A DNA stretch of 64,000 nt from a virus, in the IMG/VR virus record IMGVR_UViG_3300032116_000016; one strand, written 5' to 3'. Shown piece by piece: positions 297-57,387 of the stretch. Both the position numbers and the translations under genes were made by a program. The notes beneath the pieces were generated by a model. The model was not told the origin of the DNA. It worked only from the letters and a program-made list of their open reading frames with translations, and did no database searches. Every line of letters starts with the position of its first letter. Within the stretch, counting starts at the first letter, position 1.

Positions 297-3200
297 AAAT
301 AAAAGTTCCGTTTAAGAAATTACAGCACGTTATACATTTAGCCGATATCCATATTCGTTTGTTCCGTAGACACGATGAATATGAGCAGGCATTTAGTCGT
401 TTATATCAAGACATTCGTGATAAGCAGTTGAAGAACTTTGTCATCGTATTAGCCGGTGACATCGTTCACGCTAAAACCGATATGAGTCCAGAAATGGTTG
501 AGGTGACTTCTCGTTTCTTAAAGACTATTTCGGATATTGCACCGACCATTATGATTGCAGGTAACCACGATTGTAATCTTGCAAATACAAATCGTATGGA
601 TGCACTTACACCCATCGTAAACAACCTCCAACATCCCAATCTCTATTATGTAAGAGAAAGTGCATTGGTCGAGGTTGCTGATACCACGTTTGCGGTGTGT
701 TCTATCTTTGACGAACAAGAGAACTGGCCAACCGCTGATGAGATTGACGAAGGAACAAAAATTGCTCTCTATCACGGGCCGGTGCACGGTTCTACTACCG
801 ACGCAAACTTTACCATTACTAATCGCCACGTACACGTTGATTCATTCAATGGGTATGATATCGTTATGCTCGGAGACATTCACAAGCATCAAGTTCTTAA
901 GGAAGCTGACCCAATTATTGTCTATGCTTCAAGTCTTATTCAACAGAACCACGGAGAGACGCTCGAGAATCACGGTTGGTGTCTCTGGGATATTCCGTCA
1001 AAGAGTTTTGAATTTATCCCACTTGAAAATGACTACGGATATGTAACACTTGAAGTACATGATACAAAGATTACATACCCTGCGAATATGCCCAAGAACG
1101 CCAGAATGCGTCTGTTTACAGGTGATTTGGAAAACACACAAGTCAAGAAAATTATTACCACACTGCGAAACAACTACAACATCATCGAATTGAGTGTCAG
1201 TAAGAATCGATTTAACAAGACAGTTACTCGTCTCGCAAATGCGACACACGATGCGTTAGATTTAACAGACGTGCCGACACAGAATACACTCATCAATCAA
1301 TGGTTAGGACGTAATTATTCTACATTGGATCCCGATGTGTTACGGGCAATTGAAAAGATTAACAAGGATTTGAACGGGAAGATTGCACACGATGATCATT
1401 CTCGTAATATCCATTGGCGTCCGCTGAAGTTTACCTTCTCCAATATGTTCTCGTATGGGGAAGATAACGAAATTGACTTCACCGACATGAAGGGTGTGTA
1501 TGGTGTATTCGCACCAAACGCTTCTGGAAAAAGTTCTATTATGGATGCGTTGATGTTCTGTCTCTATGACAAGACTCCACGTGCGTTTAAGGGTGACCAC
1601 ATCATCAATAACCGAAAAGATAGCTTTGAATGTGAACTCACATTTGAAATTAACAACGAAGTGTTTGGTATTAAGCGGGTTGGTACCAGAAAGAAGAATG
1701 GTGATGTCAAGGTTGATGCCTCATTTTGGAAGGTGCAAGACAACGGAGACAAACTCAATCTCAACGGTGAGGACCGACGAGATACGAACGCTAGCATTCG
1801 TTCGTATGTGGGAACCTATGAAGATTTCGTGATGACAGCATTGAGTAGTCAAAACAGTAATGCCCTCTTCATCGACAAATCACACTCGGAACGAAAAGAC
1901 TTACTTATTCAGTTTATGGGATTGAATGTATTTGATAAACTGTTTGATGCGGCTCACGGAGAGAGTAAAGAAATCTCCGGCGTCCTCAAGCGATTTAAAA
2001 AGTCTGATGTCACCGACCAGATTGCTGAAACGCAGAATAAATTAACTACCGAGTCAGTTGTAATGACAGAGGTGGAAGAAGAAAAAGAATACTATGAAAA
2101 CTTTATACTTGGACTGAATGAAGAGTATAAAGTACAACATACATTAAAACGCCCCGTACCCGAAACATCGGGAGATATTGACGAACTAGAATCAACACTT
2201 AAAAAGCATCAGACCAAGTTGAAGAAGATTCAAGAAGATATGTCATACACCGATATGAAGGTACAATCGGAACGTAATGAATTAAAGATGGTAGAGGATG
2301 ACTTTGAACAATATGATATTGCTAAACTAGAAGAGTCTATTGCAAACTGGAACAAGTTAAATGATTTGTTAAGTAAGGGAAATAGCGCCCTTCGTGTTGT
2401 TAACACCAAGATAGAAGAGAAGGACAAGTTTAAGACTAAACTATCGGGGTATAAGTACAATCCGAAGTGTGATGTTTGTGTTGCGAACAACGCTTCAGTT
2501 ATCGAAGATTTAACGGCAGTAAACGCTGAGTTGGATGAGTTGAACGCCAAACGGTTAATTCAAGAAGATTCTATCACCAGAATTATTGAACAGATGGAAC
2601 CGTTGGAAAATGACAAAAAGGAATATGAAGAAGCACAAGAGTTAAAGGATACAATCAATACGTGGAAGCAAAAATTGAACGAATCCGAGACAGCTCTTGC
2701 CACCCTAACACTTGCACAAGAAAAGACACAGAATGTAATTTCAGCCGTCGAATCGGATATCGTAACATATAAGACCAACGAAGAAAATATCTTATATAAT
2801 GCAGATATTGATAGTAAGTTAGAAGAGATTCAACAGAAGATTGCGGAAAACAAAAAGGCTTTACAAAAAGTTGATAATAGACTTCGTGAAATCCACGGCA
2901 CAATCTCTGTATTAAAGGCAAAAAAGGAAGAACTATTAGCAAAACTAAAGGAAGCCGAAGAATTGGAAACAACCTACGAAGCCTATAACCATTATATGAT
3001 GGCAGTTGGTCGTGACGGGGTGCCGTATGAATTGATGAGTAAGGCTATTCCAAATATTGAAGCAGAGATTAATACGATTTTATCACAGATTGTAGACTTT
3101 ACTGTGTCGCTAGAGGTGGATGGTAAGAACATCAGCGGAAAGCTAACGTATGATAATGACCGTATCTGGCCGCTGGAAAACTCGTCGGGGATGGAACGAT

Positions 3201-3454
3201 TTGTCAGTAGCTTGGCAATCCGTGTCGCATTAATGAACGCTTCGAATCTCCCCAAGTCCAACTTTATGATTATTGACGAAGGATTCGGAGTATTGGACGC
3301 AGATAATCTTCATTCCATGCAAACATTGTTTAATATCCTCAAAACTCATTTTGATTTTATACTTATAGTAAGTCACTTGGAGAGTGCACGAGACATGGTA
3401 GATAACTTAATCGAAATTCGCAAGGAGGATGGGTACTCGCAAATTTCGGTGTAA
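293..3454 (+). CDS. Fused Mre11/SbcD nuclease and Rad50/SbcC SMC-like ATPase (T4 gp47-gp46-like recombination complex)
   Basis: N-terminal phosphoesterase motifs (HLADIH, AGDIVH, AGNHD, GDIHK), then Walker A (NASGKSS), coiled coil with zinc hook (KCDVC), signature (SSGME), Walker B/D-loop (IIDEGFGVLD) and H-loop (IVSH). Confidence 0.92.
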   Translation: MKIKVPFKKLQHVIHLADIHIRLFRRHDEYEQAFSRLYQDIRDKQLKNFVIVLAGDIVHAKTDMSPEMVEVTSRFLKTISDIAPTIMIAGNHDCNLANTNRMDALTPIVNNLQHPNLYYVRESALVEVADTTFAVCSIFDEQENWPTADEIDEGTKIALYHGPVHGSTTDANFTITNRHVHVDSFNGYDIVMLGDIHKHQVLKEADPIIVYASSLIQQNHGETLENHGWCLWDIPSKSFEFIPLENDYGYVTLEVHDTKITYPANMPKNARMRLFTGDLENTQVKKIITTLRNNYNIIELSVSKNRFNKTVTRLANATHDALDLTDVPTQNTLINQWLGRNYSTLDPDVLRAIEKINKDLNGKIAHDDHSRNIHWRPLKFTFSNMFSYGEDNEIDFTDMKGVYGVFAPNASGKSSIMDALMFCLYDKTPRAFKGDHIINNRKDSFECELTFEINNEVFGIKRVGTRKKNGDVKVDASFWKVQDNGDKLNLNGEDRRDTNASIRSYVGTYEDFVMTALSSQNSNALFIDKSHSERKDLLIQFMGLNVFDKLFDAAHGESKEISGVLKRFKKSDVTDQIAETQNKLTTESVVMTEVEEEKEYYENFILGLNEEYKVQHTLKRPVPETSGDIDELESTLKKHQTKLKKIQEDMSYTDMKVQSERNELKMVEDDFEQYDIAKLEESIANWNKLNDLLSKGNSALRVVNTKIEEKDKFKTKLSGYKYNPKCDVCVANNASVIEDLTAVNAELDELNAKRLIQEDSITRIIEQMEPLENDKKEYEEAQELKDTINTWKQKLNESETALATLTLAQEKTQNVISAVESDIVTYKTNEENILYNADIDSKLEEIQQKIAENKKALQKVDNRLREIHGTISVLKAKKEELLAKLKEAEELETTYEAYNHYMMAVGRDGVPYELMSKAIPNIEAEINTILSQIVDFTVSLEVDGKNISGKLTYDNDRIWPLENSSGMERFVSSLAIRVALMNASNLPKSNFMIIDEGFGVLDADNLHSMQTLFNILKTHFDFILIVSHLESARDMVDNLIEIRKEDGYSQISV

Positions 3455-24546: not shown

Positions 24547-26019
24547 ATGGCAAAGGGAAAGACTTTATTTGTAACAGATTTTGATGATACCTTGGCACGC
24601 ACAGATGCCAAGGTTATTGTCGTTAGAAATGGTAATCGGATAGAAATGGATCCAGCTGAATATGCTACATATGAAGAACAGCCGGGCGATCAATTTGATT
24701 TTTCAGAATTTGAGCAATTAAAAAATCCACGACCAATTCAACGATTTGTTAAATTATTAAAAGCTGCAGTAGAGAGCGCAGATAAAGTTGTGGTTTTAAC
24801 GGCCCGAGGGCATACTAGACCAGTTGCACAATTTTTAAAAATGATTGGAATTCGTTCGGGTAGTGTTGCAATTGCGGCACTGGGAGATTCCAACCCAGAA
24901 AAAAAAGCAAGATACATAGAAAAACAAATACAAGACGGATACACTAGAGTTGCATTTGTTGACGACTCACCAAAAAATATTGAAGCAGTCAATAAATTAA
25001 AAGCAAAATATCCAGACGTTAAGATGTTGGTGCATCAAGTAAAAGAACCTGAAGAACCTACAACATCTCCTAAAAAAGAAGTTGAACTTCGTCCTATTAA
25101 AAAAGGTGATGACGATTACGTACAAGCAGACGAGTGGATACGTACCCAACATTATCTCAAAAAATGGCCAAAGTCTGTTCAATCCACATTAGGCGTATAT
25201 GTTGATGGTAAATTGTCGGGAACATTGGTCTATGGTATTGGGACAAGAGGGCAAGCGGCAACCGATATTTTTGGACCAGGTGTGATGGCAAACAATCAAC
25301 TGTGGGAACTTCAACGGGCGTTCACTACTGACGAAGCAAAACAATTAGTACCAAATCTTGGGTCAATGGTAATATCGCGTGGTAATGAATACATTCGTAC
25401 AAACGCAAAAACTAAAGACGGTAAACCAGTAAAAGCAATTGTATCCTACGCAGACAGCGCACAAGGTCACGCAGGGTCTGTGTATAAAGCAAGTAATGCA
25501 ACATATCTTGGAGAACAACCACCTCGTACTGGTTGGGCAATTACGGATCCAAAAACAGGCGATACAGTAACTCGAACAACAATTAAATCTTCTGTACTAA
25601 AATCGTTAGCAGACAAAGGATTTTTTATTGAGAAATTAAAGCCGGAAACTGGTAAACATAAATTTTTATACGCATTGGGTAAAGACCAGAATGAAAGGGA
25701 TCAGTTGTTAGCTCAAATTAAAAAACCTATATTTGATTATCCAAAGGACGGGCAACCTGCGAAAGAAATTGAAAACGCAGCAAAAAAACGTTTGGCTGTA
25801 AAGAAACCACAACCAGCACCACCAACTACCACACCAAAATCAAAAAGAGAAACAATAAAACAATTATTAAGAAGTAAAGTCACTAATCCAGATACGGGTG
25901 AGAAGATTTTTGTACAGACGGCATTACGTAAAGACAAAACACATTCAGCGTATAAACAAGCAATGGGTATGGTAAATGCGTACGCAAAAAGATTTGGAAT
26001 AAGAGTTAAACCACGTTAA
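24547..26019 (+). CDS. HAD-family phosphatase fused to a Mom-like (GNAT) DNA-modification domain and C-terminal NPxTG module
   Basis: HAD motifs FVTDFDDTL, VLTARG and FVDDSPKN. Mom-like WIRTQHYL...LWELQR...IVSYADSAQGHAGSVYKASNATYLG. C-terminal VTNPDTGEKIFVQTAL. Confidence 0.7.
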   Translation: MAKGKTLFVTDFDDTLARTDAKVIVVRNGNRIEMDPAEYATYEEQPGDQFDFSEFEQLKNPRPIQRFVKLLKAAVESADKVVVLTARGHTRPVAQFLKMIGIRSGSVAIAALGDSNPEKKARYIEKQIQDGYTRVAFVDDSPKNIEAVNKLKAKYPDVKMLVHQVKEPEEPTTSPKKEVELRPIKKGDDDYVQADEWIRTQHYLKKWPKSVQSTLGVYVDGKLSGTLVYGIGTRGQAATDIFGPGVMANNQLWELQRAFTTDEAKQLVPNLGSMVISRGNEYIRTNAKTKDGKPVKAIVSYADSAQGHAGSVYKASNATYLGEQPPRTGWAITDPKTGDTVTRTTIKSSVLKSLADKGFFIEKLKPETGKHKFLYALGKDQNERDQLLAQIKKPIFDYPKDGQPAKEIENAAKKRLAVKKPQPAPPTTTPKSKRETIKQLLRSKVTNPDTGEKIFVQTALRKDKTHSAYKQAMGMVNAYAKRFGIRVKPR

Positions 26020-43019: not shown

Positions 43020-46000
43020 ATGGCCAGAATATATTCACAAGCTGCACAAACAGCAGCTTCAGGATCCCCTCTAACTGCATACAGTAGTCGTACTTCCGTA
43101 AGTGTTAGTGTTACGGCGGGTAAACGCTATGCGATATTCTGGTCAGCAATAATGAGTCATAGTGCGTTAACTTCTCGTGCGCGCGTTCGACTACAAAACG
43201 TTACTAATGGAGTAACATTACAGCAATTTGAATTTGAACCACAAGACTTAACGGACAGAATGAGTGCAGTGGATGTAAACGTATTTACTGCTTCATCTAC
43301 TACAACAATTGAATTTGCTATACAATGGAGTGCATCCGCCGGTACTGCTACCATTTCTGACGCGTATATTAATGTGTTAGAATTAGATGATGCTGACGTT
43401 TCTTCATATGATAGCACACAAATTGCTACAACAAATGCCGTAGCTACTCCAATAGATTCTATTAATATTCCTGCTGGCGAATGGTTTGTGTTTGGATCGT
43501 GTAACGTCAATACTCCACGAACGGCACAAGCAGCGGATGATATGGTTGTACAATTGTCTGACGGCACAAACACCTATATGGTACGAACACAGTATTATGC
43601 AAAAGATACATTAGGAATAACACCATATTTTGCAATCGTAACGGCTTCTCTTGGTGCAACAACAACGTTTTCACTAGAACATAGCTCACCAAACGGACAA
43701 AATATTGTCAATCAATATCGAACATTATTAGCATTAGACAGGTCTAAATTTGCAGAAACGTATGCCGCGGTCAGTGAATCTGCACAAATAGACTCTACAA
43801 GTGCCGGTGCACCAACCGCCATAATAACATATACGCCAACTATTGCAAACACAGGCAATCATTTAGTGGTGGGTACGTGGACGACAAAAATTAGCGCAAC
43901 TAACTCATCAGTCTTTTCTCACTTTGGTACTTCAACTACGGAACCTGGTCAATATACAGCAACCCGCCAACCACTCCGTGAAGCATCCGTTAATAATATT
44001 GACGAATTTGCACACGGATGGACGGACGTTGAATCATTAACTGCGGGGTCGATTACAAAAGTCATCGCATGGCGTCCAGAAGCAAACGTAAATGCGACAA
44101 TTTCTGATGCAGCCATTGTTATTATGGATTTGGATGGTGCCGTTGCTGCACCGAGTCCAACGCCAACTACAACACCAACACCAACACCAACACCGTCTAT
44201 TACTGTAACACCATCTATTACCACTACACCAAGTATAACTGTTACCCCTAGTATTACTACAACGCCTAGTATTACAACAACGCCTAGTATTACCACCACC
44301 CCAAGTATTACGCCATCTATTACGACCACACCGTCTATTACTACTACACCGAGTGTTACTACAACGCCGAGTATTACTAGAACTCCAAGTATTACCACTA
44401 CGCCTTCTATTACCACTACACCATCTATTACTGTAACACCGTCTATCACAACAACGCCGTCAATTACTATTACGCCAAGTATAACACCATCTATTACAGT
44501 CACACCATCTATTACCACAACGCCGAGTATTACTACCACGCCGAGTATTACGCCAAGTATTACTACAACACCGTCTATTACTACCACGCCTAGTATTACT
44601 ACTACCCCAAGTGTCACACCTTCCATTACCACAACACCAAGTATTACGACTACTCCGAGTATTACTACAACACCCAGCGTTACTAATACACCGTCTATTA
44701 CTAGAACTCCAAGTATTACTACTACGCCTTCTATTACCACTACTCCAAGTATTACGACTACCCCAAGTATTACTGTAACGCCATCTATTACTAGAACGCC
44801 ATCTATTACTACAACGCCTAGTATTACTACTACACCAAGTGTCACACCTTCCATTACCACTACACCATCTATTACCACTACACCATCTATTACTACAACC
44901 CCAAGTATTACTACTACCCCAAGTATTACTACTACCCCAAGTATTACTACTACCCCAAGTATCACCACAACACCAAGTATTACACCCAGTATTACTACTA
45001 CACCATCTATTACTACAACGCCAAGTATCACTACCACTCCTAGTGTCACGCCAAGTATTACCGTTACGCCATCTATTACCACTACACCAAGTATTACTAC
45101 TACTCCGTCAATTACAACTACTCCGAGTATTACCACAACACCGTCTATTACGGTAACGCCTTCTATTACCACTACGCCGTCAATTACCACTACTCCAAGT
45201 GTCACGCCATCTATTACCACCACGCCTAGTATTACTACTACACCTAGCGTCACGCCTAGTATTACTACTACGCCAAGCGTTACAACTACTCCAAGCGTTA
45301 CGCCATCAATAACCACTACGCCGAGTATTACTACTACACCATCTGTTACCACTACGCCGAGTATTACTACTACCCCAAGTATTACTACTACGCCGTCAAT
45401 TACTACCACACCAAGTATAACACCATCGGTTACAGTTACACCATCTATTACAGTCACACCATCTATTACAACAACACCATCGGTCACTGCTACGCCATCG
45501 GTTACCGTTACGCCTTCTATTACTGCTACGCCATCTGTTACTAGAACACCTAGCGTTACACCATCAATAACGGTAACACCAAGTATAACAACTACGCCAA
45601 GTATTACTACTACGCCAAGTATCACGCCAAGTATTACTACTACACCATCTGTTACTACTACGCCGTCTATTACTACTACTCCAAGTATTACGCCGTCGGT
45701 TACAATTACGCCAAGTATTACTACAACACCGAGTATCACACCTTCTATTACTACAACACCATCTGTTACGGCTACGCCAAGTATTACTACAACGCCATCT
45801 ATCACCACAACTCCAAGTGTAACAGTTACACCAAGTATTACAGCTTCACCTGGTGTATCTGTAACTCCATCAATAACTGTAACTCCATCAATAACCACAA
45901 CACCTTCTATTACACCAAGTATTACAGTAAGTCCTAGTATTACAGCAACCCCTAGTGTTACTGTAACTCCTTCGGCTACAACAACACCATCTATTACAAC

Positions 46001-48092
46001 AACGCCTTCTATTACCACTACGCCAAGTATTACTACTACCCCAAGTATTACTACTACGCCGTCAATTACTACCACACCAAGTATAACAACTACGCCATCT
46101 ATTACTACTACGCCTAGTATAACTGTTACCCCAAGTATTACTACTACGCCTAGTATTACCACAACGCCTTCTATTACCGCAACACCATCTATTACTGTTA
46201 CGCCAAGTATTACTACTACCCCAAGTATTACTACTACGCCGAGTATAACAACGACCCCAAGTGTCACACCTAGTATAACAACTACGCCAAGTATTACTAC
46301 TACGCCAAGTATCACACCAAGTATTACAACTACGCCAAGCGTTACAACTACGCCAAGTATTACAACTACGCCAAGTATTACTAGAACTCCAAGTATTACA
46401 ACTACGCCAAGCGTTACAACTACGCCAAGCGTTACAACTACGCCAAGCGTTACACCATCAATAACCACTACGCCATCTATTACCACTACCCCGAGTATTA
46501 CTACTACCCCAAGTATTACTACTACCCCAAGTATTACTACAACGCCAAGTATTACTAGAACGCCGTCTATTACTACTACACCAAGTGTTACTCCATCTGT
46601 TACTACAACGCCTAGTGTTACACCATCCATCACCAATACGCCATCTATTACCACCACACCAAGTGTTACACCAAGTGTTACTATTACGCCAAGTATTACT
46701 ACAACGCCTAGTGTTACACCATCCATCACCAATACGCCGTCTGTTACAACCACGCCTAGTATTACTACAACACCGTCTGTTACAACCACGCCTAGTATTA
46801 CTACAACACCGTCTATCACGGCAACGCCATCTATTACCACAACGCCAAGTATTACCACAACGCCAAGTATTACAACTACGCCAAGTATTACTAGAACGCC
46901 GAGTATCACTACAACACCAGGATCAACACCATCTGTTACCGTTACACCGAGTATCACTACCACGCCGTCTATTACCACTACACCTAGTGTCACTAGAACA
47001 CCTTCTATTACTACTACCCCAAGTATTACTACTACGCCGTCTATTACCACAACGCCAAGTATTACTAGAACGCCCAGTATCACGCCATCTATTACCACTA
47101 CGCCGTCTGTTACTTCTACACCCAGTATCACTACTACACCGTCTGTTACCAGAACACCATCAATCACAACTACGCCAAGTATTACGCCAAGTATTACTAC
47201 TACGCCGTCAATTACTACCACACCAAGTATTACTACTACGCCATCTATTACCACTACGCCGTCTATTACTACTACTCCAAGTATTACTAGAACGCCTAGT
47301 GTCACTAGAACGCCAAGTATCACGCCATCTATTACCACTACGCCGTCTATTACCACAACGCCAAGTATTACTAGAACGCCATCTATTACGACTACCCCAA
47401 GTATTACTAGAACAACAAGTGTTACACCTAGTATTACTACAACGCCTTCAATTACTACTACCCCAAGTATTACTACTACCCCAAGTATTACTACTACCCC
47501 AAGTATTACTAGAACGCCTTCTATCACAACTACACCAAGTATCACTAGAACATCAGGCGTTACACCTAGTGTTACTACAACTCCGTCTATTACACCATCA
47601 ATTACCGTCAGTATTACCCCATCAATAACTAAAACCCCATCGATAACACCGACTCGTAGTGTAACAAAAACACCAACGGTTACGCCAACTATTACACCGA
47701 CTCGTTCAACTACCCCTACAGTAACACCGAGTGTAACAATAACACCTTCTATAACTCCATCAATTACCCCGTCTGAAGTAAAAGTTAGTGATATAGCAAT
47801 TTATGGTATAGAATTACGTTATAAAGTTGGAATGGTGGAACATTCATACATTGGTGGTGTAAATCAATCTTTACCTGTAAAAGACCAAGGTAATATTTGG
47901 GTGTACGGAGAACAATTATTATACAGTGATTATAGTGGGGTGACAAGAGTAATTACTGGTGCTAGAGTACAAATAACCAATCGTAAAGCAGGTGAAATAT
48001 TTATCAAAAATGGACGTTTGTATTGGGTAATTGGTGATGATATTACAAATTATGAGTTCGCATTATCTAACGAATCTTCATTTAGTTATTAA
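43020..48092 (+). CDS. Giant mucin-like virion fibre protein (N-terminal beta domain, ~1200-aa TTTPSI stalk, small C-terminal domain)
   Basis: 1690 aa ORF; GAGGT Shine-Dalgarno; follows the fibre chaperone gene. Confidence 0.85.
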   Translation: MARIYSQAAQTAASGSPLTAYSSRTSVSVSVTAGKRYAIFWSAIMSHSALTSRARVRLQNVTNGVTLQQFEFEPQDLTDRMSAVDVNVFTASSTTTIEFAIQWSASAGTATISDAYINVLELDDADVSSYDSTQIATTNAVATPIDSINIPAGEWFVFGSCNVNTPRTAQAADDMVVQLSDGTNTYMVRTQYYAKDTLGITPYFAIVTASLGATTTFSLEHSSPNGQNIVNQYRTLLALDRSKFAETYAAVSESAQIDSTSAGAPTAIITYTPTIANTGNHLVVGTWTTKISATNSSVFSHFGTSTTEPGQYTATRQPLREASVNNIDEFAHGWTDVESLTAGSITKVIAWRPEANVNATISDAAIVIMDLDGAVAAPSPTPTTTPTPTPTPSITVTPSITTTPSITVTPSITTTPSITTTPSITTTPSITPSITTTPSITTTPSVTTTPSITRTPSITTTPSITTTPSITVTPSITTTPSITITPSITPSITVTPSITTTPSITTTPSITPSITTTPSITTTPSITTTPSVTPSITTTPSITTTPSITTTPSVTNTPSITRTPSITTTPSITTTPSITTTPSITVTPSITRTPSITTTPSITTTPSVTPSITTTPSITTTPSITTTPSITTTPSITTTPSITTTPSITTTPSITPSITTTPSITTTPSITTTPSVTPSITVTPSITTTPSITTTPSITTTPSITTTPSITVTPSITTTPSITTTPSVTPSITTTPSITTTPSVTPSITTTPSVTTTPSVTPSITTTPSITTTPSVTTTPSITTTPSITTTPSITTTPSITPSVTVTPSITVTPSITTTPSVTATPSVTVTPSITATPSVTRTPSVTPSITVTPSITTTPSITTTPSITPSITTTPSVTTTPSITTTPSITPSVTITPSITTTPSITPSITTTPSVTATPSITTTPSITTTPSVTVTPSITASPGVSVTPSITVTPSITTTPSITPSITVSPSITATPSVTVTPSATTTPSITTTPSITTTPSITTTPSITTTPSITTTPSITTTPSITTTPSITVTPSITTTPSITTTPSITATPSITVTPSITTTPSITTTPSITTTPSVTPSITTTPSITTTPSITPSITTTPSVTTTPSITTTPSITRTPSITTTPSVTTTPSVTTTPSVTPSITTTPSITTTPSITTTPSITTTPSITTTPSITRTPSITTTPSVTPSVTTTPSVTPSITNTPSITTTPSVTPSVTITPSITTTPSVTPSITNTPSVTTTPSITTTPSVTTTPSITTTPSITATPSITTTPSITTTPSITTTPSITRTPSITTTPGSTPSVTVTPSITTTPSITTTPSVTRTPSITTTPSITTTPSITTTPSITRTPSITPSITTTPSVTSTPSITTTPSVTRTPSITTTPSITPSITTTPSITTTPSITTTPSITTTPSITTTPSITRTPSVTRTPSITPSITTTPSITTTPSITRTPSITTTPSITRTTSVTPSITTTPSITTTPSITTTPSITTTPSITRTPSITTTPSITRTSGVTPSVTTTPSITPSITVSITPSITKTPSITPTRSVTKTPTVTPTITPTRSTTPTVTPSVTITPSITPSITPSEVKVSDIAIYGIELRYKVGMVEHSYIGGVNQSLPVKDQGNIWVYGEQLLYSDYSGVTRVITGARVQITNRKAGEIFIKNGRLYWVIGDDITNYEFALSNESSFSY
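44150..47780 (+). repeat. Degenerate tandem coding repeat (TTTPSI units)
   Basis: Continuous T/P/S/I/V repeats with mixed synonymous codons and short perfect runs (e.g. 3 copies of ccccaagtattactacta at 44899-44952). Boundaries are approximate. Confidence 0.92.
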
Positions 48093-48098
48093 AATTCA

Positions 48099-48106
48099 TA
48101 TTTATA
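48099..48106 (+). promoter_or_regulatory. Late-promoter candidate TATTTATA
   Basis: Intergenic, ending 26 nt before the GTG at 48133. Confidence 0.6.
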
Positions 48107-48132
48107 TGAAATGTATAACGTGAGGTGTATTC

Positions 48133-48648
48133 GTGGCTGAGACAAGACTTTCTGGCGCATTAATAAGAACTGGAACGAATATCGGACCTGTGAACAAACT
48201 ATCAGTTGGAGATGTGACCACACCAAGTGGTTCTCTTCATGTTGGCGGTACGACAGTTCTACAACAAATATTAGAAAAAAATACTATTGCTGCGACTGCG
48301 GCAACGGGGACAATTAATTTTAATGTATTATCACAAGGGGTGTTGTATTATACAACCAACTCATCGGGTAATTGGACTCTAAACTTCACAGGTGACATTT
48401 CAACTACATTAAATAATATAATGTATATTGGGCAAAGTTTGAGTTTGGCGTTTTTAGTAACAAACGGTTCTCCCGCATTTTATGTCACATCTCATACAAT
48501 TGATGGTGCTTCTGTAACACCAAAATGGCAAGGTGGTGCTGTTCCCTCAGCGGGTAACACAAATTGTATTGATGTGTATTCGTATGTTATAATAAAAACA
48601 GCAAATGCTACATTTACTGTGTTAGCATCAGTAATACCTTTCGTTTAA
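48133..48648 (+). CDS. Stand-alone fibre-adaptor-like protein
   Basis: GTG start after GAGGTG. ILEK...AATGTINF...KWQGGAVPSAGNTNCIDVYSYVIIKTANATFTVLAS is closely similar to the C-terminus of 3467-6091. Confidence 0.75.
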   Translation: MAETRLSGALIRTGTNIGPVNKLSVGDVTTPSGSLHVGGTTVLQQILEKNTIAATAATGTINFNVLSQGVLYYTTNSSGNWTLNFTGDISTTLNNIMYIGQSLSLAFLVTNGSPAFYVTSHTIDGASVTPKWQGGAVPSAGNTNCIDVYSYVIIKTANATFTVLASVIPFV

Positions 48649-48657
48649 TAAGATTGT

Positions 48658-51600
48658 ATGACTCCGGTACTTGGTGCACGAGGTGGTGCTAGTGTTAGGT
48701 CGTTTGGTTTATTTGGGGCAATAACACCAACGCCTACGCCTTCAATTACTCGTACTCCATCGGTTACACCAAGTATTACTCCGTCGAGAAGCGTAACGCC
48801 TAGTATTACACCATCAATCACAATTACGCCAAGTATTACGCCTTCTATTACTAGAACGCCAAGTATTACTCCGTCAATAACAGTAACAACTACACCTAGT
48901 GTTACTAACACCCCTTCAATTACGATAACTCCGTCTATTACTGCTACTACTACGCCAAGTATTACAGTTACACCTTCTATTACTATTACACCATCTATTA
49001 CAACTACGCCAAGTATTACTAGAACGCCATCTATTACGACTACGCCATCAATTACTATCACCCCAAGTATTACTAGAACGCCTTCTATTACGACTACACC
49101 AAGCGTAACTAAAACGCCAAGTATTACTACTACGCCGTCTATTACCACTACGCCGTCTATTACCACTACGCCAAGTATTACGCCAAGTATTACTGTTACA
49201 CCATCTATTACTAAAACGCCAAGTATTACGCCAAGTATTACCATTACACCATCTATTACTAAAACACCTTCTATTACTACAACACCGAGTGTTACCAGAA
49301 CGCCATCTATTACGGTAACCCCAAGTATCACACCTTCTATTACTACAACGCCAAGCGTAACAACTACGCCAAGTGTTACACCATCTATTACCACTACACC
49401 GTCTATCACAACTACTCCAAGTATTACTACAACGCCGTCTATTACAACTACCCCTAGTGTTACCACGACGCCAAGCGTTACGCCATCTATTACTACCACT
49501 CCTAGTATTACCAGAACACCAAGTATTACTACCACGCCTTCTATTACTACAACACCAAGTGTTACCAAAACACCATCTATTACTACTACGCCAAGTATTA
49601 CTACCACGCCTTCTATTACGACTACACCATCTATTACTACTACGCCAAGTATTACTCCAAGTATTACACCGTCAATTACCACTACGCCGTCTATTACCAC
49701 TACGCCGTCTATTACCACTACGCCGTCTATTACCACAACACCGTCAGTTACAACTACTCCAAGTATTACAGTTACACCATCTATTACTAAAACGCCAAGT
49801 ATTACGCCAAGTATTACGTCTTCGCCGGGGATTAGTGTAACCCCAAGTATTACGGTAACACCGTCTATTACTACTACGCCTTCTATTACAAAAACACCGA
49901 GTGTTACGGTAACGCCTTCTATTACTACTACGCCGTCTATTACCACAACACCGAGTATTACTCCATCAATTACAACTACGCCTTCTATTACCACAACACC
50001 ATCTGTTACAAATACACCAAGTATCACTACAACACCATCAGTAACTACTACACCGTCTATCACCACCACGCCTAGTGTTACTACCACACCAAGTATTACT
50101 CCATCTATTACCACTACACCATCTATTACTACCACACCAAGTATTACCAAAACGCCTTCTATTACAACTACGCCTTCTATTACTACAACGCCAAGTATTA
50201 CCAAAACGCCTTCTATTACGACTACACCAAGTATTACGGTAACGCCGTCTATTACTACCACGCCATCAGTAACTACTACACCATCTATTACAACTACACC
50301 AAGTATTACGCCAAGTATTACGACAACGCCTTCTATTACTACTACACCATCTATTACAAGAACGCCAAGTATTACTACTACGCCTTCTATTACTAAAACG
50401 CCGAGTATTACGATAACGCCTTCTATTACAAGAACGCCTAGTGTTACGGTAACGCCTTCTATCACAACTACACCAAGCATTACACCATCCATTACGACTA
50501 CTCCATCTATTACCACCACACCAAGTATTACCACTACGCCTTCTATTACTACTACGCCCAGTATTACGCCGTCTATTACCACTACGCCGTCTATTACCAG
50601 AACGCCGTCTATTACGACTACGCCAAGTATTACGCCAAGTATTACGATAACGCCTTCTGTCACTACAACACCAAGTATTACTACAACGCCTTCTGTTACT
50701 ATTACGCCTAGTATTACACCATCTATTACCACTACGCCTTCTATTACTAGAACCCCGAGTATTACTACTACACCGTCTATTACTGTTACGCCAAGTATTA
50801 CTCCATCAATTACAACTACGCCATCTATTACTAAAACGCCAAGTATTACTACCACACCGTCTATTACAACCACACCTTCCGTAACTAGAACGCCAAGTAT
50901 TACCACTACGCCTTCTATTACCAGAACGCCGTCTATTACTACAACACCTAGCATTACACCTTCTATTACCATTACGCCAAGTATTACTACAACACCAAGT
51001 GTAACTCCGTCTATTACCACCACACCATCTATTACGACTACACCAAGTATTACTACAACACCGTCTATTACAACTACACCAAGTATTACTCCATCTATTA
51101 CAACTACACCAAGTATTACAAAAACGCCTTCTATTACTAGAACCCCAAGTATTACCACTACACCAAGTATTACAACAACGCCAAGTATTACTAAAACGCC
51201 GTCAATTACTACTACACCTTCTATCACTACAACGCCAAGTATTACTACAACGCCAAGTATTACTCCAAGTATTACTAAAACGCCTTCTATTACTACAACG
51301 CCAAGTATTACTACAACGCCGAGTATTACCGTAACGCCAAGTATTACTCCATCAATTACAACTACGCCATCTATTACTAAAACGCCAAGTATTACCGTTA
51401 CACCATCTGTTACCATCACACCATCTATTACTACTACTCCTAGTATTACCAGAACACCAAGTATTACGACAACGCCTTCTATTACTACAACGCCTTCTAT
51501 TACTACAACGCCGAGTATTACTCCAAGTATTACGGTAACGCCTTCTATTACTACAACGCCTTCTATTACGAAAACGCCGAGTGTTACTACAACGCCAAGT

Positions 51601-53307
51601 ATTACTACTACACCGTCTATTACTAGAACGCCAAGCGTAACAACTACGCCATCTATTACTACCACGCCTAGTATTACCAGAACACCAAGTATTACTCCTA
51701 GTATTACGCCGTCTATTACCACTACACCATCTATTACGACTACACCAAGTATTACCAGAACACCAAGTATTACGACAACGCCTTCTATTACTACAACACC
51801 ATCTATTACTACTACGCCAAGTATTACTAGAACGCCGTCTATTACGACTACACCATCTATTACTACTACGCCAAGTATTACTCCAAGTATTACCATCACG
51901 CCAAGTATTACCAAAACACCGTCTATTACCACTACGCCAAGCATTACTACAACGCCTTCTATTACAAGAACGCCAAGTATCACGCCAAGTATTACAACAA
52001 CGCCGTCTATTACTAGAACGCCAAGTATTACTACAACACCGTCTATTACTAGAACGCCGTCTATTACTAGAACGCCGAGTATTACCACTACGCCGTCTAT
52101 TACCAGAACACCGTCTATTACGCCTTCTAACACACCGGGAACAATGGTTATTGAACTTGCTAGTGGGTCAGCAAGTAGTAATACAACAACGGGAGCATCT
52201 ACAGGATCACATACATGGACCGTACAATCAAACGCTACAGCGTTAGTAGCACGTGTGGCTTCACAGGCAGAATTTCCAACATACGGTAAACCGACAGCAA
52301 TGTGGTGGTCTGGAAGTTGGGGAAGAACCGCATTAACAATGCAACAAGAATCAGCTAATATTGGTGATGGTATTGCTCTAACAATCTGGACATTATTCAG
52401 TCCAAATTCTGGCACAGGTGCATTAGAAATTGCGTATAACGGTACTATGTATTATCGTATGTATCATACTAATTATAAAAATGCTGTAGCCGTGTGGGAT
52501 AAAGATTTTACCAGTACAAACGGCACAAGTATGTTCGTTCCATTATACACAGATGCGGATAATAGTTCTTTAATGATTGGAATTGGTGTTGGAGTAAATG
52601 CATTCGGTTCACCAAGTACGTTGTCAGCGGCAGGAGGATCTACCTCGGAATGGACAACAACCAGTACGGCATTGACATATGATTTTGAAGTAAATATGTC
52701 CAAAAAATATGCATCAAGTACAGCTGGACAGTTAGATTGGACCCACAGCCAGACGTTAAATATTAAAGCAGCGGCAATTCAATTAGAAAATATTATACCA
52801 TCAGTAACACCGACTATTACACCGACACCGACGATAACTCCATCTAAAACAAGAACGCCATCGCCAGTGACGCCTTCGCCAACGCCGTCACCGACGCCAT
52901 CGCCAGTAACGCCGTCACCTGTAACGCCTTCACCTGTTACCCCATCACCAGTAACACCATCACCAGTAACGCCTTCGCCAACACCATCACCAACACCTTC
53001 GCCAGTAACACCATCACCGGTAACGCCTTCACCAACGCCGTCACCAACACCATCGCCAGTAACGCCTTCGCCAACACCATCACCAACACCTGCACCAGTA
53101 ACGCCTTCGCCAACACCAGCACCAACACCTGCACCAGTAACACCTGCACCAACACCCGCACCAGTAACACCATCACCGACATCTTCGTGTCAAGACGGCA
53201 CGTATGCGTGTATTGGAGTAAATCTATACTATTGTAATCTCGGAACTTATGAACTAGCATGTGTGGATTATGTAGACTGTGGTGGAAGTCAATTCCTTTG
53301 TACGTAA
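48658..53307 (+). CDS. Giant mucin-like virion fibre protein with central globular domain and Cys-rich tip
   Basis: MTPVLGARGGASVRSFG leader, ~1140-aa TTTPSI stalk, ~220-aa beta domain, VTPSP linker and C-terminal ...CVDYVDCGGSQFLCT. Confidence 0.85.
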   Translation: MTPVLGARGGASVRSFGLFGAITPTPTPSITRTPSVTPSITPSRSVTPSITPSITITPSITPSITRTPSITPSITVTTTPSVTNTPSITITPSITATTTPSITVTPSITITPSITTTPSITRTPSITTTPSITITPSITRTPSITTTPSVTKTPSITTTPSITTTPSITTTPSITPSITVTPSITKTPSITPSITITPSITKTPSITTTPSVTRTPSITVTPSITPSITTTPSVTTTPSVTPSITTTPSITTTPSITTTPSITTTPSVTTTPSVTPSITTTPSITRTPSITTTPSITTTPSVTKTPSITTTPSITTTPSITTTPSITTTPSITPSITPSITTTPSITTTPSITTTPSITTTPSVTTTPSITVTPSITKTPSITPSITSSPGISVTPSITVTPSITTTPSITKTPSVTVTPSITTTPSITTTPSITPSITTTPSITTTPSVTNTPSITTTPSVTTTPSITTTPSVTTTPSITPSITTTPSITTTPSITKTPSITTTPSITTTPSITKTPSITTTPSITVTPSITTTPSVTTTPSITTTPSITPSITTTPSITTTPSITRTPSITTTPSITKTPSITITPSITRTPSVTVTPSITTTPSITPSITTTPSITTTPSITTTPSITTTPSITPSITTTPSITRTPSITTTPSITPSITITPSVTTTPSITTTPSVTITPSITPSITTTPSITRTPSITTTPSITVTPSITPSITTTPSITKTPSITTTPSITTTPSVTRTPSITTTPSITRTPSITTTPSITPSITITPSITTTPSVTPSITTTPSITTTPSITTTPSITTTPSITPSITTTPSITKTPSITRTPSITTTPSITTTPSITKTPSITTTPSITTTPSITTTPSITPSITKTPSITTTPSITTTPSITVTPSITPSITTTPSITKTPSITVTPSVTITPSITTTPSITRTPSITTTPSITTTPSITTTPSITPSITVTPSITTTPSITKTPSVTTTPSITTTPSITRTPSVTTTPSITTTPSITRTPSITPSITPSITTTPSITTTPSITRTPSITTTPSITTTPSITTTPSITRTPSITTTPSITTTPSITPSITITPSITKTPSITTTPSITTTPSITRTPSITPSITTTPSITRTPSITTTPSITRTPSITRTPSITTTPSITRTPSITPSNTPGTMVIELASGSASSNTTTGASTGSHTWTVQSNATALVARVASQAEFPTYGKPTAMWWSGSWGRTALTMQQESANIGDGIALTIWTLFSPNSGTGALEIAYNGTMYYRMYHTNYKNAVAVWDKDFTSTNGTSMFVPLYTDADNSSLMIGIGVGVNAFGSPSTLSAAGGSTSEWTTTSTALTYDFEVNMSKKYASSTAGQLDWTHSQTLNIKAAAIQLENIIPSVTPTITPTPTITPSKTRTPSPVTPSPTPSPTPSPVTPSPVTPSPVTPSPVTPSPVTPSPTPSPTPSPVTPSPVTPSPTPSPTPSPVTPSPTPSPTPAPVTPSPTPAPTPAPVTPAPTPAPVTPSPTSSCQDGTYACIGVNLYYCNLGTYELACVDYVDCGGSQFLCT
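48720..52130 (+). repeat. Degenerate tandem coding repeat (TTTPSI / TRTPSI / TKTPSI units)
   Basis: Same unit family as the arrays at 6150-7430 and 44150-47780. Boundaries are approximate. Confidence 0.92.
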
Positions 53308-53340: not shown

Positions 53341-53772
53341 ATGAATACATTTCAAGATTTACAATTATTGGTTGATGCTAACGCAATAATCCAAAATTAT
53401 AACTGTGTGGATAATACAACGTGTGATGCTTTAAAATCACTCACCACGGGAAACGGATTATATCGACAAATTCATTATTTAATTGATAAACAAACACCTT
53501 TTAGAGTGTTATGGTTGCAATACGACACCACAGATGATGAGTTTATATTAAATTTATCGTGTTTTGATAAAGATAAAAACGTTATAACTCCTTTAGATTT
53601 TACGAATAGGGTTGAAGGCCCATCAAAAACATTAGTACAATCGTATATTAATACCAATCCAATAAAATGGATAAAAACGGTACCAAATGAATATAGTCTC
53701 ATGTATACGACTCAAAATGCTAATATAGGACAGAAACTACAAAATACTTTACCAATAATTAAAAAGCTGTAG
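53341..53772 (+). CDS. Hypothetical protein
   Basis: 143 aa ORF between the mucin-like gene and the glycosylation operon; no recognised motif. Confidence 0.6.
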   Translation: MNTFQDLQLLVDANAIIQNYNCVDNTTCDALKSLTTGNGLYRQIHYLIDKQTPFRVLWLQYDTTDDEFILNLSCFDKDKNVITPLDFTNRVEGPSKTLVQSYINTNPIKWIKTVPNEYSLMYTTQNANIGQKLQNTLPIIKKL

Positions 53773-53863: not shown

Positions 53864-55183
53864 ATGACTACAAAAAAGAAAGTTGTTAAAAAGACTGTAA
53901 GAAATCAGAGTATAAAAAAGACTGCTGGACGAGTTAAAAAGAAAGTACCTACTATTTTCGTTCAAATTGCAGCATACCGTGATCCAGAATTATTACACAC
54001 TCTTCGCAGTTTATTACAAAACGCAGATCATCCAGAAAATTTGACTATTGCCATTGGTTGGCAGCATTCTCCCTATGAGAAGTGGGATAATTTAGATGAG
54101 TTCAAAGATGACACAAGATTTAAGATAATAGATATAGATTATCGTAAATCTAAAGGTGTTTGCTGGATGCGTGAAAAAATACAGAAATTGTATAATGGCG
54201 AAACTTATACACTACAACTAGATTCACATCATAGATTTACCGAACATTGGGATACGCAAGTAATAGAAATGTTAGAAGGATTGCGTAGTAAAGGACACAC
54301 AAAACCACTGCTGAGTTCATACTTACCAGATTTTAATCCAGTAACAGGACCTGAAGGTGAATTACCTGCTCCGTGGATTATGGAATTTGACAGATTTGGT
54401 CCAGAAGGGCCAGTACACTTCTTACCACATACAATAGACGATTGGAGAGAACTGACATCACCAGTTCCATCAAGATTCATGTCTGGTCATTTTATATTTG
54501 CTGACGGAATATTTGTTAAAGAAGTTCCGTATGACCCAAATTATTATTTTCACGGTGAAGAAATTGATTTATCTGTTCGTTCTTATATGGCGGGGTACGA
54601 TCTATTCGCACCACACAGAACTATTGCTTGGCACGAATACTATAGAGAAGGAAAGAGTAAACATTGGGAGGACCATACAAATTGGGCATCAGAAGATAGA
54701 ATCTCACACGCATATCATCGCAAAATGTACGGTATTGAATCGAAGAACAGAAAATTAAAAGATAATGTACGAACACTTCAGGAATATGAAATGTATGCTG
54801 GATTGGAGTTTTCTACAAAACGTGCTCATACGATGACCATACAAAAAATACGCCCTCCAGTTTCTTTAGATGTAGAATCCCATACACAAGGATTGGTTCC
54901 TTATCATAAAGTATGTATTGATGTGTATAAAGGATCATTACCAGAGAAGGATTATAATTTCTGGGTAGTTGCGTTTACAAATAAAGATGGAATAGAATTT
55001 CATAGACATGATGCTGATGAAAATGAAATAAATATGGCTATGAGTGTACCTTATGAAGCAGATAAGTTTGTGCATATATGGAGAGCATTCTATTCTGATC
55101 AACCAGCTGATGGGTGGATCGTGTGGCCTCATAGTAAGAGTAATGGGTGGTGTGAAAGATTAACTGGTAAATTTGGACGATAA
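53864..55183 (+). CDS. GT60/GT27-like polypeptide N-acetylhexosaminyltransferase, paralog 1
   Basis: IFVQIAAYRDPEL, SKGVCW.R, YTLQLDSHHRF (DxH), FHGEEIDLSVRSYMAGYDLFAP: the pattern of the Skp1/T. cruzi-type GlcNAc-transferase family. Start placed at ATG 53864 after GAGG. Confidence 0.85.
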   Translation: MTTKKKVVKKTVRNQSIKKTAGRVKKKVPTIFVQIAAYRDPELLHTLRSLLQNADHPENLTIAIGWQHSPYEKWDNLDEFKDDTRFKIIDIDYRKSKGVCWMREKIQKLYNGETYTLQLDSHHRFTEHWDTQVIEMLEGLRSKGHTKPLLSSYLPDFNPVTGPEGELPAPWIMEFDRFGPEGPVHFLPHTIDDWRELTSPVPSRFMSGHFIFADGIFVKEVPYDPNYYFHGEEIDLSVRSYMAGYDLFAPHRTIAWHEYYREGKSKHWEDHTNWASEDRISHAYHRKMYGIESKNRKLKDNVRTLQEYEMYAGLEFSTKRAHTMTIQKIRPPVSLDVESHTQGLVPYHKVCIDVYKGSLPEKDYNFWVVAFTNKDGIEFHRHDADENEINMAMSVPYEADKFVHIWRAFYSDQPADGWIVWPHSKSNGWCERLTGKFGR

Positions 55184-55184
55184 T

Positions 55185-56426
55185 ATGAGAAAAAATAAAA
55201 ATATTTTCGTTCAAATTGCAGCATACCGTGATCCAGAATTACTACCCACTATTCGTGATTGTATATCCAATGCGAAGAACCCGGAAAATCTTCGATTCTG
55301 TATTGCGTGGCAGCATTCTAACGAAGATGTCTGGGACAATTTAGATGAGTTTAAAAACGATTCACGATTTATAATTCTAGATATTCCACATCTACAGACA
55401 AAAGGAACGTGTTGGGCACGGTATCAAATCCAACAACATTGGAACGGAGAAGCATATACCCTACAATTAGATTCACATCATCGTTTTGCTAAAAATTGGG
55501 ATAGTATGCTAATTAAGATGGTCAAAGATTTACAAAAAGCAGGATATAAAAAACCATTATTGACTGCATATATGTCAAGTTATGAACCACATAACGATCC
55601 CACGGGACGAGCACCAGACCCGTGGTTCTTAACATTTGACAGATTCACTCCAGCTGGAGCAGTATTTTTTATACCCGCTGTTATTCCTGATTGGAAAAAT
55701 CGTAAATTACCATATCCAAGTAGATTTTATTCCGCTCATTTTGGATTCACACTTGGACAATTTTGTAAAGAAGTTCCTCACGATCCGAACTACTTGTTTC
55801 ACGGTGAGGAAATTTCTATTGCCGCACGAGCGTATACGTGGGGATATGATTTGTTTGCGGCACATAAACCTGTAGTGTGGCACGAATATTCACGAAATCA
55901 CCGCCCTCGTAAATCGTGGGACGACATATCAGATTGGACTAATTGGGATAATCAATCGTTGGCACGTAACAGAAGATTGTTAAACGTGGATAACGAGAAT
56001 GACCCTAATGAAGATTTTGGAGAATTTGGATTTGGTACACAACGTACACTACAGCAGTACGAAGAATATGCGGGAATACAATTTTCTACAAGAAGTATAC
56101 AAAAACATACGTTAGAACATCGTGAACCACCCAACCCGCCAAATCAACCATTCTTTAGAATTTTTAAACATTGTATTGATTTACCATATCAATATGTACC
56201 GTATAATGACTATGATTTTTGGGCGGTAGCATTTGAAGATGAATTTGGTAACGAGATATATAGACACGATGCTACAGAAGATGATATCATACAAATGAAG
56301 AATGATCCTGACGGATATTGTAAATTGTGGAGACAGTTTCACGCAACGGCAAAACCCGCCAGATGGATTGTTTGGCCACATTCTAAATCACACGGATGGT
56401 GTGATCGATTGGTTGGAGATATCTAA
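55185..56426 (+). CDS. GT60/GT27-like polypeptide N-acetylhexosaminyltransferase, paralog 2
   Basis: IFVQIAAYRDPEL, TKGTCWAR, YTLQLDSHHRF, FHGEEISIAARAYTWGYDLF. Shares its C-terminal domain with paralog 1. Confidence 0.85.
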   Translation: MRKNKNIFVQIAAYRDPELLPTIRDCISNAKNPENLRFCIAWQHSNEDVWDNLDEFKNDSRFIILDIPHLQTKGTCWARYQIQQHWNGEAYTLQLDSHHRFAKNWDSMLIKMVKDLQKAGYKKPLLTAYMSSYEPHNDPTGRAPDPWFLTFDRFTPAGAVFFIPAVIPDWKNRKLPYPSRFYSAHFGFTLGQFCKEVPHDPNYLFHGEEISIAARAYTWGYDLFAAHKPVVWHEYSRNHRPRKSWDDISDWTNWDNQSLARNRRLLNVDNENDPNEDFGEFGFGTQRTLQQYEEYAGIQFSTRSIQKHTLEHREPPNPPNQPFFRIFKHCIDLPYQYVPYNDYDFWAVAFEDEFGNEIYRHDATEDDIIQMKNDPDGYCKLWRQFHATAKPARWIVWPHSKSHGWCDRLVGDI

Positions 56427-56427
56427 A

Positions 56428-57387
56428 ATGCAGCACAAAACAAAATTACGTATTCATAATTCCTGCAACAAGTACACTAGGTATTATAGATATTATAATT
56501 TTTTTTGGGATGCTTTGACTTACGAGTTAGGTAAAACGTTTGAAATTGAAGAAAACAGATATTTCGAACATGCCCATACAATACCAATGCCAATAAAACT
56601 CAAAAAGGCAAAATGTGATTTAGAAATTTATGAATCAGACTACGTTATAGAAAACGTAGAATCGGGTGACTTCTATATATTGACAGCGTGTGATGTATTG
56701 ACCGGACACGTAATAGCTGAAAGAGAGAATCCACACTTAAAAAAAGTATTGGTGGCACAGTACATAGACCAAATTATTAAACACAACGTAGAAAATCCAC
56801 ATACCAGTAAATATTCCCCATGGATTTATTTTCAAAGTGGATTGACTAATTTAGAAGAATATTTTTATAAAAGAAAGTTAATACTCAATTTTAATAAAAA
56901 ATTATACTTTCGTGGTAAAATTGATGACCGTCCTATTTTAAAGTACTTTTCTCCATCTATCTTGGAATCAGGCCAAACAATTAATCAAAATGATTATTTC
57001 AACGAAGCAATTAATCACGAAATCGGATTATCCATAGGCGGTGTTGGTGAGTTGTGTTATAGAGATATTGAATATATGGGAATGGGTATACCGTTTTTGC
57101 GTTTTGAATTCGCTAGCAGTCTTAAAGAACCATTAATTCCAAATGTACACTATATTTCAGTAGATAGGCCGAATGACTTACCAACAGAACAACGTACTTG
57201 TGGTGTTGGATTAGATAGGATGGGATTAGAACATCACGCAAAGTTAATAGAGCAACGTTATTTAGAAGTAATAGATGACAAAGAATTTTTAAGATTTGTA
57301 TCTACTAATGCAAGAGAGTATTATGAAAAATATCTTATGTATCCGAACAATGTAAGACACACAATTAATTGGTTGGGGTTAGAATAA
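56428..57387 (+). CDS. Putative GT-B glycosyltransferase (CgeB/GT90-like C-terminal domain)
   Basis: LYFRG...GLSIGGVGELCYRDIEYMGMGIPFL...LIPNVHYISV...NAREYYEKY. Start placed at ATG 56428. Confidence 0.55.
   Translation: MQHKTKLRIHNSCNKYTRYYRYYNFFWDALTYELGKTFEIEENRYFEHAHTIPMPIKLKKAKCDLEIYESDYVIENVESGDFYILTACDVLTGHVIAERENPHLKKVLVAQYIDQIIKHNVENPHTSKYSPWIYFQSGLTNLEEYFYKRKLILNFNKKLYFRGKIDDRPILKYFSPSILESGQTINQNDYFNEAINHEIGLSIGGVGELCYRDIEYMGMGIPFLRFEFASSLKEPLIPNVHYISVDRPNDLPTEQRTCGVGLDRMGLEHHAKLIEQRYLEVIDDKEFLRFVSTNAREYYEKYLMYPNNVRHTINWLGLE

Follow-up and report, generated by a model that had tools for sequence, protein, structure and literature searches.

Tandem GT60-family glycosyltransferases of a large tailed phage carry a separable C-terminal domain with a predicted FN3/Ig-like fold

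The characterised enzymes of the PF11397 family (CAZy GT60) add alpha-GlcNAc to the hydroxyl groups of polypeptides and so start O-glycans (PMC6939170), and those of GT27 densely glycosylate the Thr/Ser-rich repeats of mucins (PMC9296478). Accessory domains that guide a glycosyltransferase to its acceptor are well known, with examples in GT27, POMGnT1, GnT-IVa and POMGNT2 (PMC9296478, PMC8360118). In POMGNT2 this is a fibronectin type III domain (FnIII or FN3) at the C-terminus, which uses Trp and Phe to bind the acceptor peptide close to a TPT motif, forms a dimer and is essential for activity (PMC8360118). As regards phages, mycobacteriophages encode glycosyltransferases that work in the host cytoplasm and O-glycosylate capsid and tail-tube proteins of the same phage, as two later papers relate the work (Freeman et al. 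2023, as cited in PMC10877033 and PMC12619734). Here we describe two adjacent genes, P1 and P2, in a 64,000-nucleotide stretch of viral DNA (IMG/VR virus record IMGVR_UViG_3300032116_000016, hereafter the window), both of which encode a PF11397/GT60 enzyme with a C-terminal domain beyond the catalytic core, referred to below as the tail. Literature searches found nothing on phage PF11397/GT60 enzymes or on this tail domain.

P1, P2 and their C-terminal domain

P1 (439 amino acids (aa), counted from its ATG) and P2 (413 aa) lie on the same strand and are separated by a gap of 1 base (Table 1). The two proteins were aligned by BLASTP with 47% identity across 418 columns (E 3e-138), and the alignment reached their last residues; by region, identity was 51% in the core, 44% in the junction that follows it and 43-44% in the tail. 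A preliminary description of this DNA, made from the letters alone, had proposed that the paralogs have in common a catalytic core followed by a conserved tail, and the end-to-end alignment bears this out, with all the motifs that it quoted found. Both proteins matched PF11397, P1 with 222.3 bits and P2 with 241.8 bits against a gathering cut-off of 21. It reaches only to about residue 312 of P1 and about residue 300 of P2, so that about 100 C-terminal residues fall outside the Pfam model. The same description had called the tail unrecognised. This holds for Pfam, in which the tail alone matched no family at E<=10, fn3 included, but not altogether, as phrog_24687 ('glycosyltransferase', 409 positions) already covers the whole of both proteins, tail included. 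Full-length P1 and P2 gave no meaningful NCBIfam match, and when P2 and the profile of the family were searched against PDB sequences, they returned chance-level matches only.

An AlphaFold2 (AF2) model of P2, built on 35 relatives, had a predicted local distance difference test score (pLDDT) of 92.3 and a predicted template modelling score (pTM) of 0.86. In this model the GT-A fold takes up residues 1-324 and has Z scores of 12-21 to many GT-A enzymes. The closest structures to the core were the animal and Toxoplasma polypeptide GalNAc-transferases of GT27 (Foldseek E 2.6e-9), and residues 113-426 of mouse GalNAc-T1 could be laid on residues 2-324 of the P2 model with a VIA Z of 21.1 and a root-mean-square deviation (rmsd) of 3.6 over 277 residues. 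Sequence identity to these GT27 structural neighbours was only 11-17%, and a match to the Pfam family Glycos_transf_2 was marginal and seen for P2 alone (27 bits). Because the family alignment A1, which comprises 35 sequences and includes both paralogs, shows no variation in the Asp-Ser-His motif (DxH), in HGEE or in a His further on, P1 and P2 are probably both active. The first Rossmann strand of P2 begins at residue 7 and neither protein has space for a signal peptide; the enzymes should therefore act in the host cytoplasm. Taken together, family membership and the modelled fold demonstrate that P1 and P2 are soluble GT-A enzymes of PF11397 (CAZy GT60, the polypeptide alpha-GlcNAc-transferase family).

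In the full-length P2 model the tail occupies residues 323-413 and consists of seven strands and one helix, placed after a Pro-rich junction in which DSSP assigned helices at residues 289-296 and 307-310 and a strand at residues 304-306, all with pLDDT >90. When the tail was modelled alone, from 43 tail sequences, pLDDT was 97.0 and the secondary structure was unchanged. Glycosyltransferase alignments with Z of about 16 or higher all end by about residue 324, and residue 323, the start of the tail, is the point at which the alignment with the catalytic domain of GalNAc-T1 ends, that is, the position of the GT27 lectin domain. These models support the original proposal that the tail is a distinct domain: it lies outside the GT-A fold and is predicted to fold by itself. 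The tail is conserved to the same degree as the core, with a mean pairwise identity of 63% in the family alignment against 65%; 17 residues of the tail are invariant, among them five Trp (W346, W382, W394, W397 and W405 of P2), two Arg (R360 and R383) and three Asp (including D362).

The fold of the tail was compared with 48,161 PDB representatives independently of Foldseek, and a second comparison was then made on Foldseek's candidates. FN3 domains and monobodies were superposed on the tail model with Z 6-7.2 and rmsd 2.8-3.1 over 72-80 of 94 residues (VIA-align), and the Ig-like sandwich of a GH2 glycosidase with Z 7.0 and 15% identity, it being understood that a Z below 8 may mean a common arrangement only. 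Structure prediction and fold search on the last ~90 aa, the check put forward with the preliminary description, thus point to an autonomous FN3/Ig-like beta-sandwich, with best matches at Z of about 7. With the tail alone as query, no Foldseek match had an E value under 0.058 (PDB) or 0.017 (BFVD), and there was no beta-trefoil among the matches listed. The QxW motif and an internal threefold repeat are both absent from the tail, as read from its sequence and model. A beta-trefoil identity (ricin-B/CBM13) was ruled out by the size of 91 residues, the count of seven strands and the lack of QxW. The analogy with the GT27 lectin domain drawn at the outset therefore survives as far as the position after the core is concerned, but does not extend to kinship or to fold.

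Distribution and natural modularity of the tail

The tail is nearly universal in the phage/bacterial branch of PF11397. A tail-only search returned 270 proteins, and PF11397 was present in all 120 matches listed. An exhaustive HMMER search with a tail profile found only 234 proteins among 1.84 billion representatives, and the tail therefore marks a phage/bacterial sub-branch of GT60. At least 585 contigs in IMG/VR carry a relative. In the 80 viral loci collected, every GT60 copy spans the full profile, tail included, and no other tail-bearing open reading frame (ORF) was found in these loci or in the window. Two of the IMG/VR loci, L057 and L063, are labelled as giant-virus metagenome-assembled genomes (GVMAG) and carry a main-clade, phage-type GT60 with its tail; L063 is nearly identical to the unlabelled locus L056, and the binning may be wrong. 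Full-length homologues also occur in the isolated relatives XacN1, Xoo-sp13, CM1 and RAS14. In the jumbo Xanthomonas phage XacN1 (L082) the homologue is ORF334; it adjoins a carbamoyltransferase gene and lies near a GT9 gene, with no annotated Ser/Thr-rich ORF in the 17 kb shown.

The bacterial sample, which includes megabase contigs, comprised 37 loci from the genomes of Saprospiraceae, Gemmatimonadaceae, Cytophagaceae and others. Two GT60 copies in this sample are tail-less, one in L116 and the other the minus-strand copy in L109. Both end just after the junction helix (YAG..F), and for neither was a tail found nearby in any frame. The second of these is on the chromosome of a Jiulongibacter sediminis isolate, where the tail-less core (L109:1957-2895, minus strand) and a GT60 with tail (L109:3956-5236, plus strand) form a natural pair about 1 kb apart. 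The tail has also been duplicated: P0144 has the order GT60-tail-tail, and in P0199 an extra tail stands between two cores.

Tails were found on catalytic domains other than GT60 as well. In P0269 a Sulfotransfer_2-like N-terminal domain, with an Atlas feature score of 0.93 and a structural TM of 0.75/0.85 across some 200 residues, is followed by a tail; the gene is directly downstream of a GT60 gene and is identical in two independent assemblies, one from JGI and one from ENA. P0251 joins a complete HtrL/YibB domain to a tail, and P0205, whose gene adjoins a GT34-like gene, joins a Methyltransf_24-like domain to one. The tail profile matched these three proteins with E values of 1e-15 to 1e-21, and the hallmarks FW, YRxD, R.F, WPxS and GW are kept. 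In a further group the tail lies mid-chain, with additional sequence C-terminal to GT60 and tail. P0216 ends in this way with HtrL/YibB and P0235 with TPR repeats, while P0177, P0167 and P0195 have regions without assignment.

Several other candidates were rejected. Stand-alone tails of about 150 aa begin at an internal conserved Met and are gene fragments or split genes, not free domains; P0122, one such apparent tail, was traced to a 342-kb contig, where it makes up the latter half of a GT60 gene that is split and has another, full GT60 next to it. In the chimeras P0139 (PglD_N), P0200 (GT28 N-terminal domain) and P0187 (THF dehydrogenase) either the partner domain is truncated or the tail is incomplete, and they are probably artefacts of assembly or gene calling. 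The idea that the tail is a mere spacer or an integral piece of the GT-A fold was likewise ruled out, by its independent fold, by the tail-less, duplicated and grafted forms, and by its conservation. Judged from sequence and modelled structure together, this same evidence demonstrates that the tail is a separable accessory domain under strong selection.

Probable acceptors, the two paralogs and the role of the tail

Directly upstream of P1 and P2, on the same strand, are the genes of two stalk proteins with at least 63% Ser+Thr over 150 aa. These stalk proteins are the probable acceptors of P1 and P2. With Ser/Thr-rich defined as at least 45% Ser+Thr over 150 aa, a Ser/Thr-rich ORF lies within 10 kb of the enzyme in 29 of the 80 viral loci, and 36 of the 39 ORFs concerned are on the enzyme's strand; in 13 of the 80 loci such an ORF shares the enzyme's strand and finishes less than 300 nt upstream of it. 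These locus counts are descriptive and have no matched background set; they agree with the arrangement in the window.

A quick maximum-likelihood tree of 98 sequences, in which several branches are long and the deep nodes are unsafe, placed the two paralogs apart. P2 falls inside a main clade of 75 rows, consisting mostly of single-copy phage enzymes, beside L002_b and L074_b, and P1 groups with L002_a and P0183 in a separate clade with support 100. Most related loci hold a single copy. In the tandem pairs L055, L066 and L077 and in the split pair L001, a main-clade copy is accompanied by one from another divergent clade, with the order of the genes reversed, and in P0152 and P0164 two GT60-plus-tail units are fused in one chain. 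Distinct clades and recurrent and fused pairs imply that the pair is old and recurrent. Ahead of its first Rossmann strand P1 carries some 30 additional residues rich in Lys (53864-53950); similar basic extensions are present in P0183 and L074_a, two related copies of the accessory clade, and none is present in P2 or L002_a. The pairing of P1 and P2 is compatible with a division of labour: as old, separate lineages they may act on the same substrates, probably with different preferences for site or context.

The most likely role of the tail, though we propose it tentatively and by analogy, is to dock the acceptor. The extended Thr/Ser/Pro chain of the neighbouring stalk proteins would be kept beside the active site, perhaps across a dimer, in the way in which POMGNT2 uses Trp/Phe contacts of its FnIII domain to hold a TPT-containing peptide. 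The outcome would be that repeat arrays of a thousand or more residues are densely glycosylated in the host cytoplasm before the virion is assembled. Docking is favoured because a Trp-rich sandwich, beside an enzyme that faces Thr-Pro-Ser repeats, fits the POMGNT2 precedent. The conservation of the tail, its occurrence behind other sugar-modifying domains and the Ser/Thr-rich neighbours of the enzymes also speak for it. Several observations speak against it. No Ser/Thr-rich ORF was found within 10 kb in 51 of the 80 related loci. Fusions to domains other than GT60 are rare; P0251 is a singleton with no second cluster in 5.8 billion proteins and weighs weakly, and P0269 is a recent graft, its tail being 58-70% identical to GT60 tails and its N-terminal domain having homologues without a tail. 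The structural matches of the tail reach only the level of a common arrangement, which gives a fold class but neither kinship nor function. Finally, the pTM of the full-length model and the pLDDT of the junction are just as compatible with a structural domain that is packed rigidly.

The tail might instead be an oligomerisation or assembly domain that joins homo-oligomers or P1-P2 hetero-oligomers, or tethers glycan-building enzymes, without touching the acceptor. This reading, drawn by analogy with TarS and TarP, is a serious one but unlikely. The C-terminal domains of TarS and TarP serve trimerisation, and the alignments of TarP, WrtF, TarS and RmlT with the P2 model do reach the tail region (model ends 360-393, Z 14.7-15.1), although those of TarS and TarP cover the tail only partly, with rmsd 3.8-5.3. 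The FnIII domain of POMGNT2 likewise mediates a domain-swapped dimer as well as binding its peptide (PMC8360118). The fused units in P0152 and P0164 and the recurrence of tandem pairs suggest side-by-side work, but the single copy in most loci means that a hetero-complex would not be the general role. A common assembly handle would also suit a tail that is carried by sulfotransferase-, HtrL- and methyltransferase-like partners.

It is more doubtful, again on analogy, that the tail is a product-binding lectin which, like that of GT27, binds the sugar on a neighbouring Thr/Ser and steers the enzyme to free sites nearby. The tail does take the position of the GT27 lectin. In composition, its invariant Trp, Arg and Asp residues resemble sugar-binding sites; its weak structural matches include, besides the GH2 Ig-like domain, CBM25 and the carbohydrate-binding domain of Wzt, and enzymes that act after the first sugar, as the methyltransferase- and sulfotransferase-like fusions would, bear the same tail. 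However, the tail has neither the trefoil fold nor the QxW and threefold repeat of such lectins, it gave no significant match to any carbohydrate-binding module in Foldseek or Pfam, and FN3-type domains are mostly binders of protein.

Nor is it probable that the tail acts as a structural cap, packed rigidly on the core so as to stabilise it or to shape a loop and having no ligand of its own. The confidently placed junction of the full-length model fits such a cap, as does the finding that the tail nearly always occurs with GT60. Natural tail-less cores imply, however, that the core needs no tail in order to fold, and the tail is predicted to fold alone, is duplicated, has been grafted to unrelated catalytic domains with its hallmarks kept, and is conserved to the same degree as the core.

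That the enzymes glycosylate phage DNA or a host surface polymer, with the tail binding that polymer, is highly improbable: phage glycosyltransferases often modify DNA in the account given by PMC12619734, a Mom-like DNA-modification gene is present in the window, and the XacN1 homologue lies near DNA polymerase and RNase H genes as well as beside its carbamoyltransferase, but the PF11397 members of known activity act on polypeptides (PMC6939170), the nearest structures are those of polypeptide GalNAc-transferases, and tight synteny with Ser/Thr-rich proteins is repeated among the loci.

A broader arrangement is also conceivable, to which we give a rather small chance. The tail would then be a portable substrate-addressing domain, carried by the initiating GT60 and, in some genomes, by later enzymes (an HtrL-like transferase, a sugar methyltransferase and a sulfotransferase), and would bring all of them to one mucin-like protein; phages and bacteria would thus possess machinery for mucin-type O-glycosylation in the cytoplasm, guided by a module of its own that is not a lectin. 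If docking is correct, it would explain how a soluble, bacterial-type enzyme can densely decorate Thr/Ser/Pro stalks of a thousand or more residues. Small, well folded and so far lacking a Pfam entry, the domain could then also guide searches for the substrates and partner enzymes of protein O-glycosylation in phages and bacteria, and might help in engineering bacteria to glycosylate at high site density. Should its role be purely structural or that of an oligomerisation domain, it is an ordinary family-specific extension.

Genomic surroundings and comparison with known systems

The features of the locus are collected in Table 1. The large ORFs of the window are all on one strand, and portal, major head and tail-sheath genes among them indicate that it comes from a large tailed phage. 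A 143-aa ORF without a Pfam family (53341-53772) stands between the second stalk gene and P1. Minus-strand ORFs with Gly/Val/Ile repeats (48645-52415 and 43949-47545) mirror the Thr/Ser/Pro genes and are almost certainly artefacts of repeat composition. Downstream of P1 and P2 are an epimerase/dehydratase-family gene, a methyltransferase gene and several genes without a family. An ORF listed at 56302-57387, also without a Pfam family, overlaps the end of P2 by 125 nt; its likelier start is an in-frame ATG at about 56428, two bases past the P2 stop. Further away, a single ORF (24547-26019) combines a polynucleotide-kinase-like N-terminal part with the Mom-like DNA-modification domain (phrog_415, phrog_1384), and a 1053-aa ORF (293-3454) matches both SbcD-like and SbcC-like nuclease subunits and is an apparent fusion of the two.

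Table 1. Positions in the window of P1, P2, their domains and motifs, and the probable acceptor genes
Feature	Position	Strand	Evidence
P1, GT60/PF11397, with Lys-rich N-terminal extension of ~30 aa; accessory clade	53864..55183	+	ORF; Pfam E 1.6e-65; phrog_24687 E 3e-142, residues 30-433
DxH (Asp-Ser-His) metal-binding motif of P1, residues 120-122	54221..54229	+	Sequence; invariant columns in alignment A1
Predicted beta-sandwich tail of P1, ~residues 341-439	54884..55180	+	43% identity to P2 tail; all hallmark residues kept; no Pfam match at E<=10
P2, GT60/PF11397; mainstream clade	55185..56426	+	ORF; Pfam E 1.9e-71; phrog_24687 E 8.1e-155, residues 6-411; AF2 model
DxH motif of P2, D96-S97-H98	55470..55478	+	Invariant columns in A1
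Junction of P2, residues 287-322: helix, short strand, Pro-rich linker	56043..56150	+	DSSP; invariant R287, Y292, E293, G297, F300 and P316
Tail of P2, residues 323-413, predicted FN3/Ig-like sandwich	56151..56423	+	Tail-only AF2 pLDDT 97.0; VIA-align; 17 invariant residues
Two giant Thr/Ser/Pro-repeat proteins, probable acceptors	43020-48092 and 48658-53307 (span 43020..53307)	+	ORFs, translations

By family, the known enzymes closest to P1 and P2 are the GT60 enzymes Gnt1 of Dictyostelium and Toxoplasma and the pp-alpha-GlcNAcT of Trypanosoma cruzi. P1 and P2 have in common with them the family membership of the catalytic domain, the DxH motif, and a soluble form without a signal peptide. 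The tail of P1 and P2, however, lies beyond the end of the Pfam model, through which the protist enzymes were compared.

TarS, TarP and RmlT, which act on wall teichoic acid, likewise have beta-rich domains C-terminal to a GT-A core and modify a polymer that is long and repetitive, but their acceptor is poly-ribitol phosphate and not protein. In mycobacteriophage virion glycosylation, as far as the citing papers describe it, the targets are short C-terminal tracts, whereas here they would be stalks of a thousand or more residues.

The closest working analogy is POMGNT2 (GT61), a GlcNAc-transferase of protein O-glycans with a C-terminal FN3 domain. It differs in that its core is GT-B rather than GT-A, in that it acts on O-mannose instead of initiating on Thr/Ser, and in having no sequence similarity to P1 and P2; the tail model and the POMGNT2 structure (6xfi) were not significantly matched by Foldseek (E 0.27, TM 0.36).

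GT27 enzymes (GalNAc-T1, T2, T4 and others) are the best structural match to the core and carry an accessory domain after it at the same point. Their lectin domain is a beta-trefoil (CBM13) on a flexible linker, whereas the tail of P1 and P2 is modelled as a 91-residue sandwich after a confidently placed Pro-rich junction and has no detectable homology to it. If the tail does dock the acceptor, it would represent an independent, second evolutionary solution to what animal GT27 enzymes achieve with their lectin domain.

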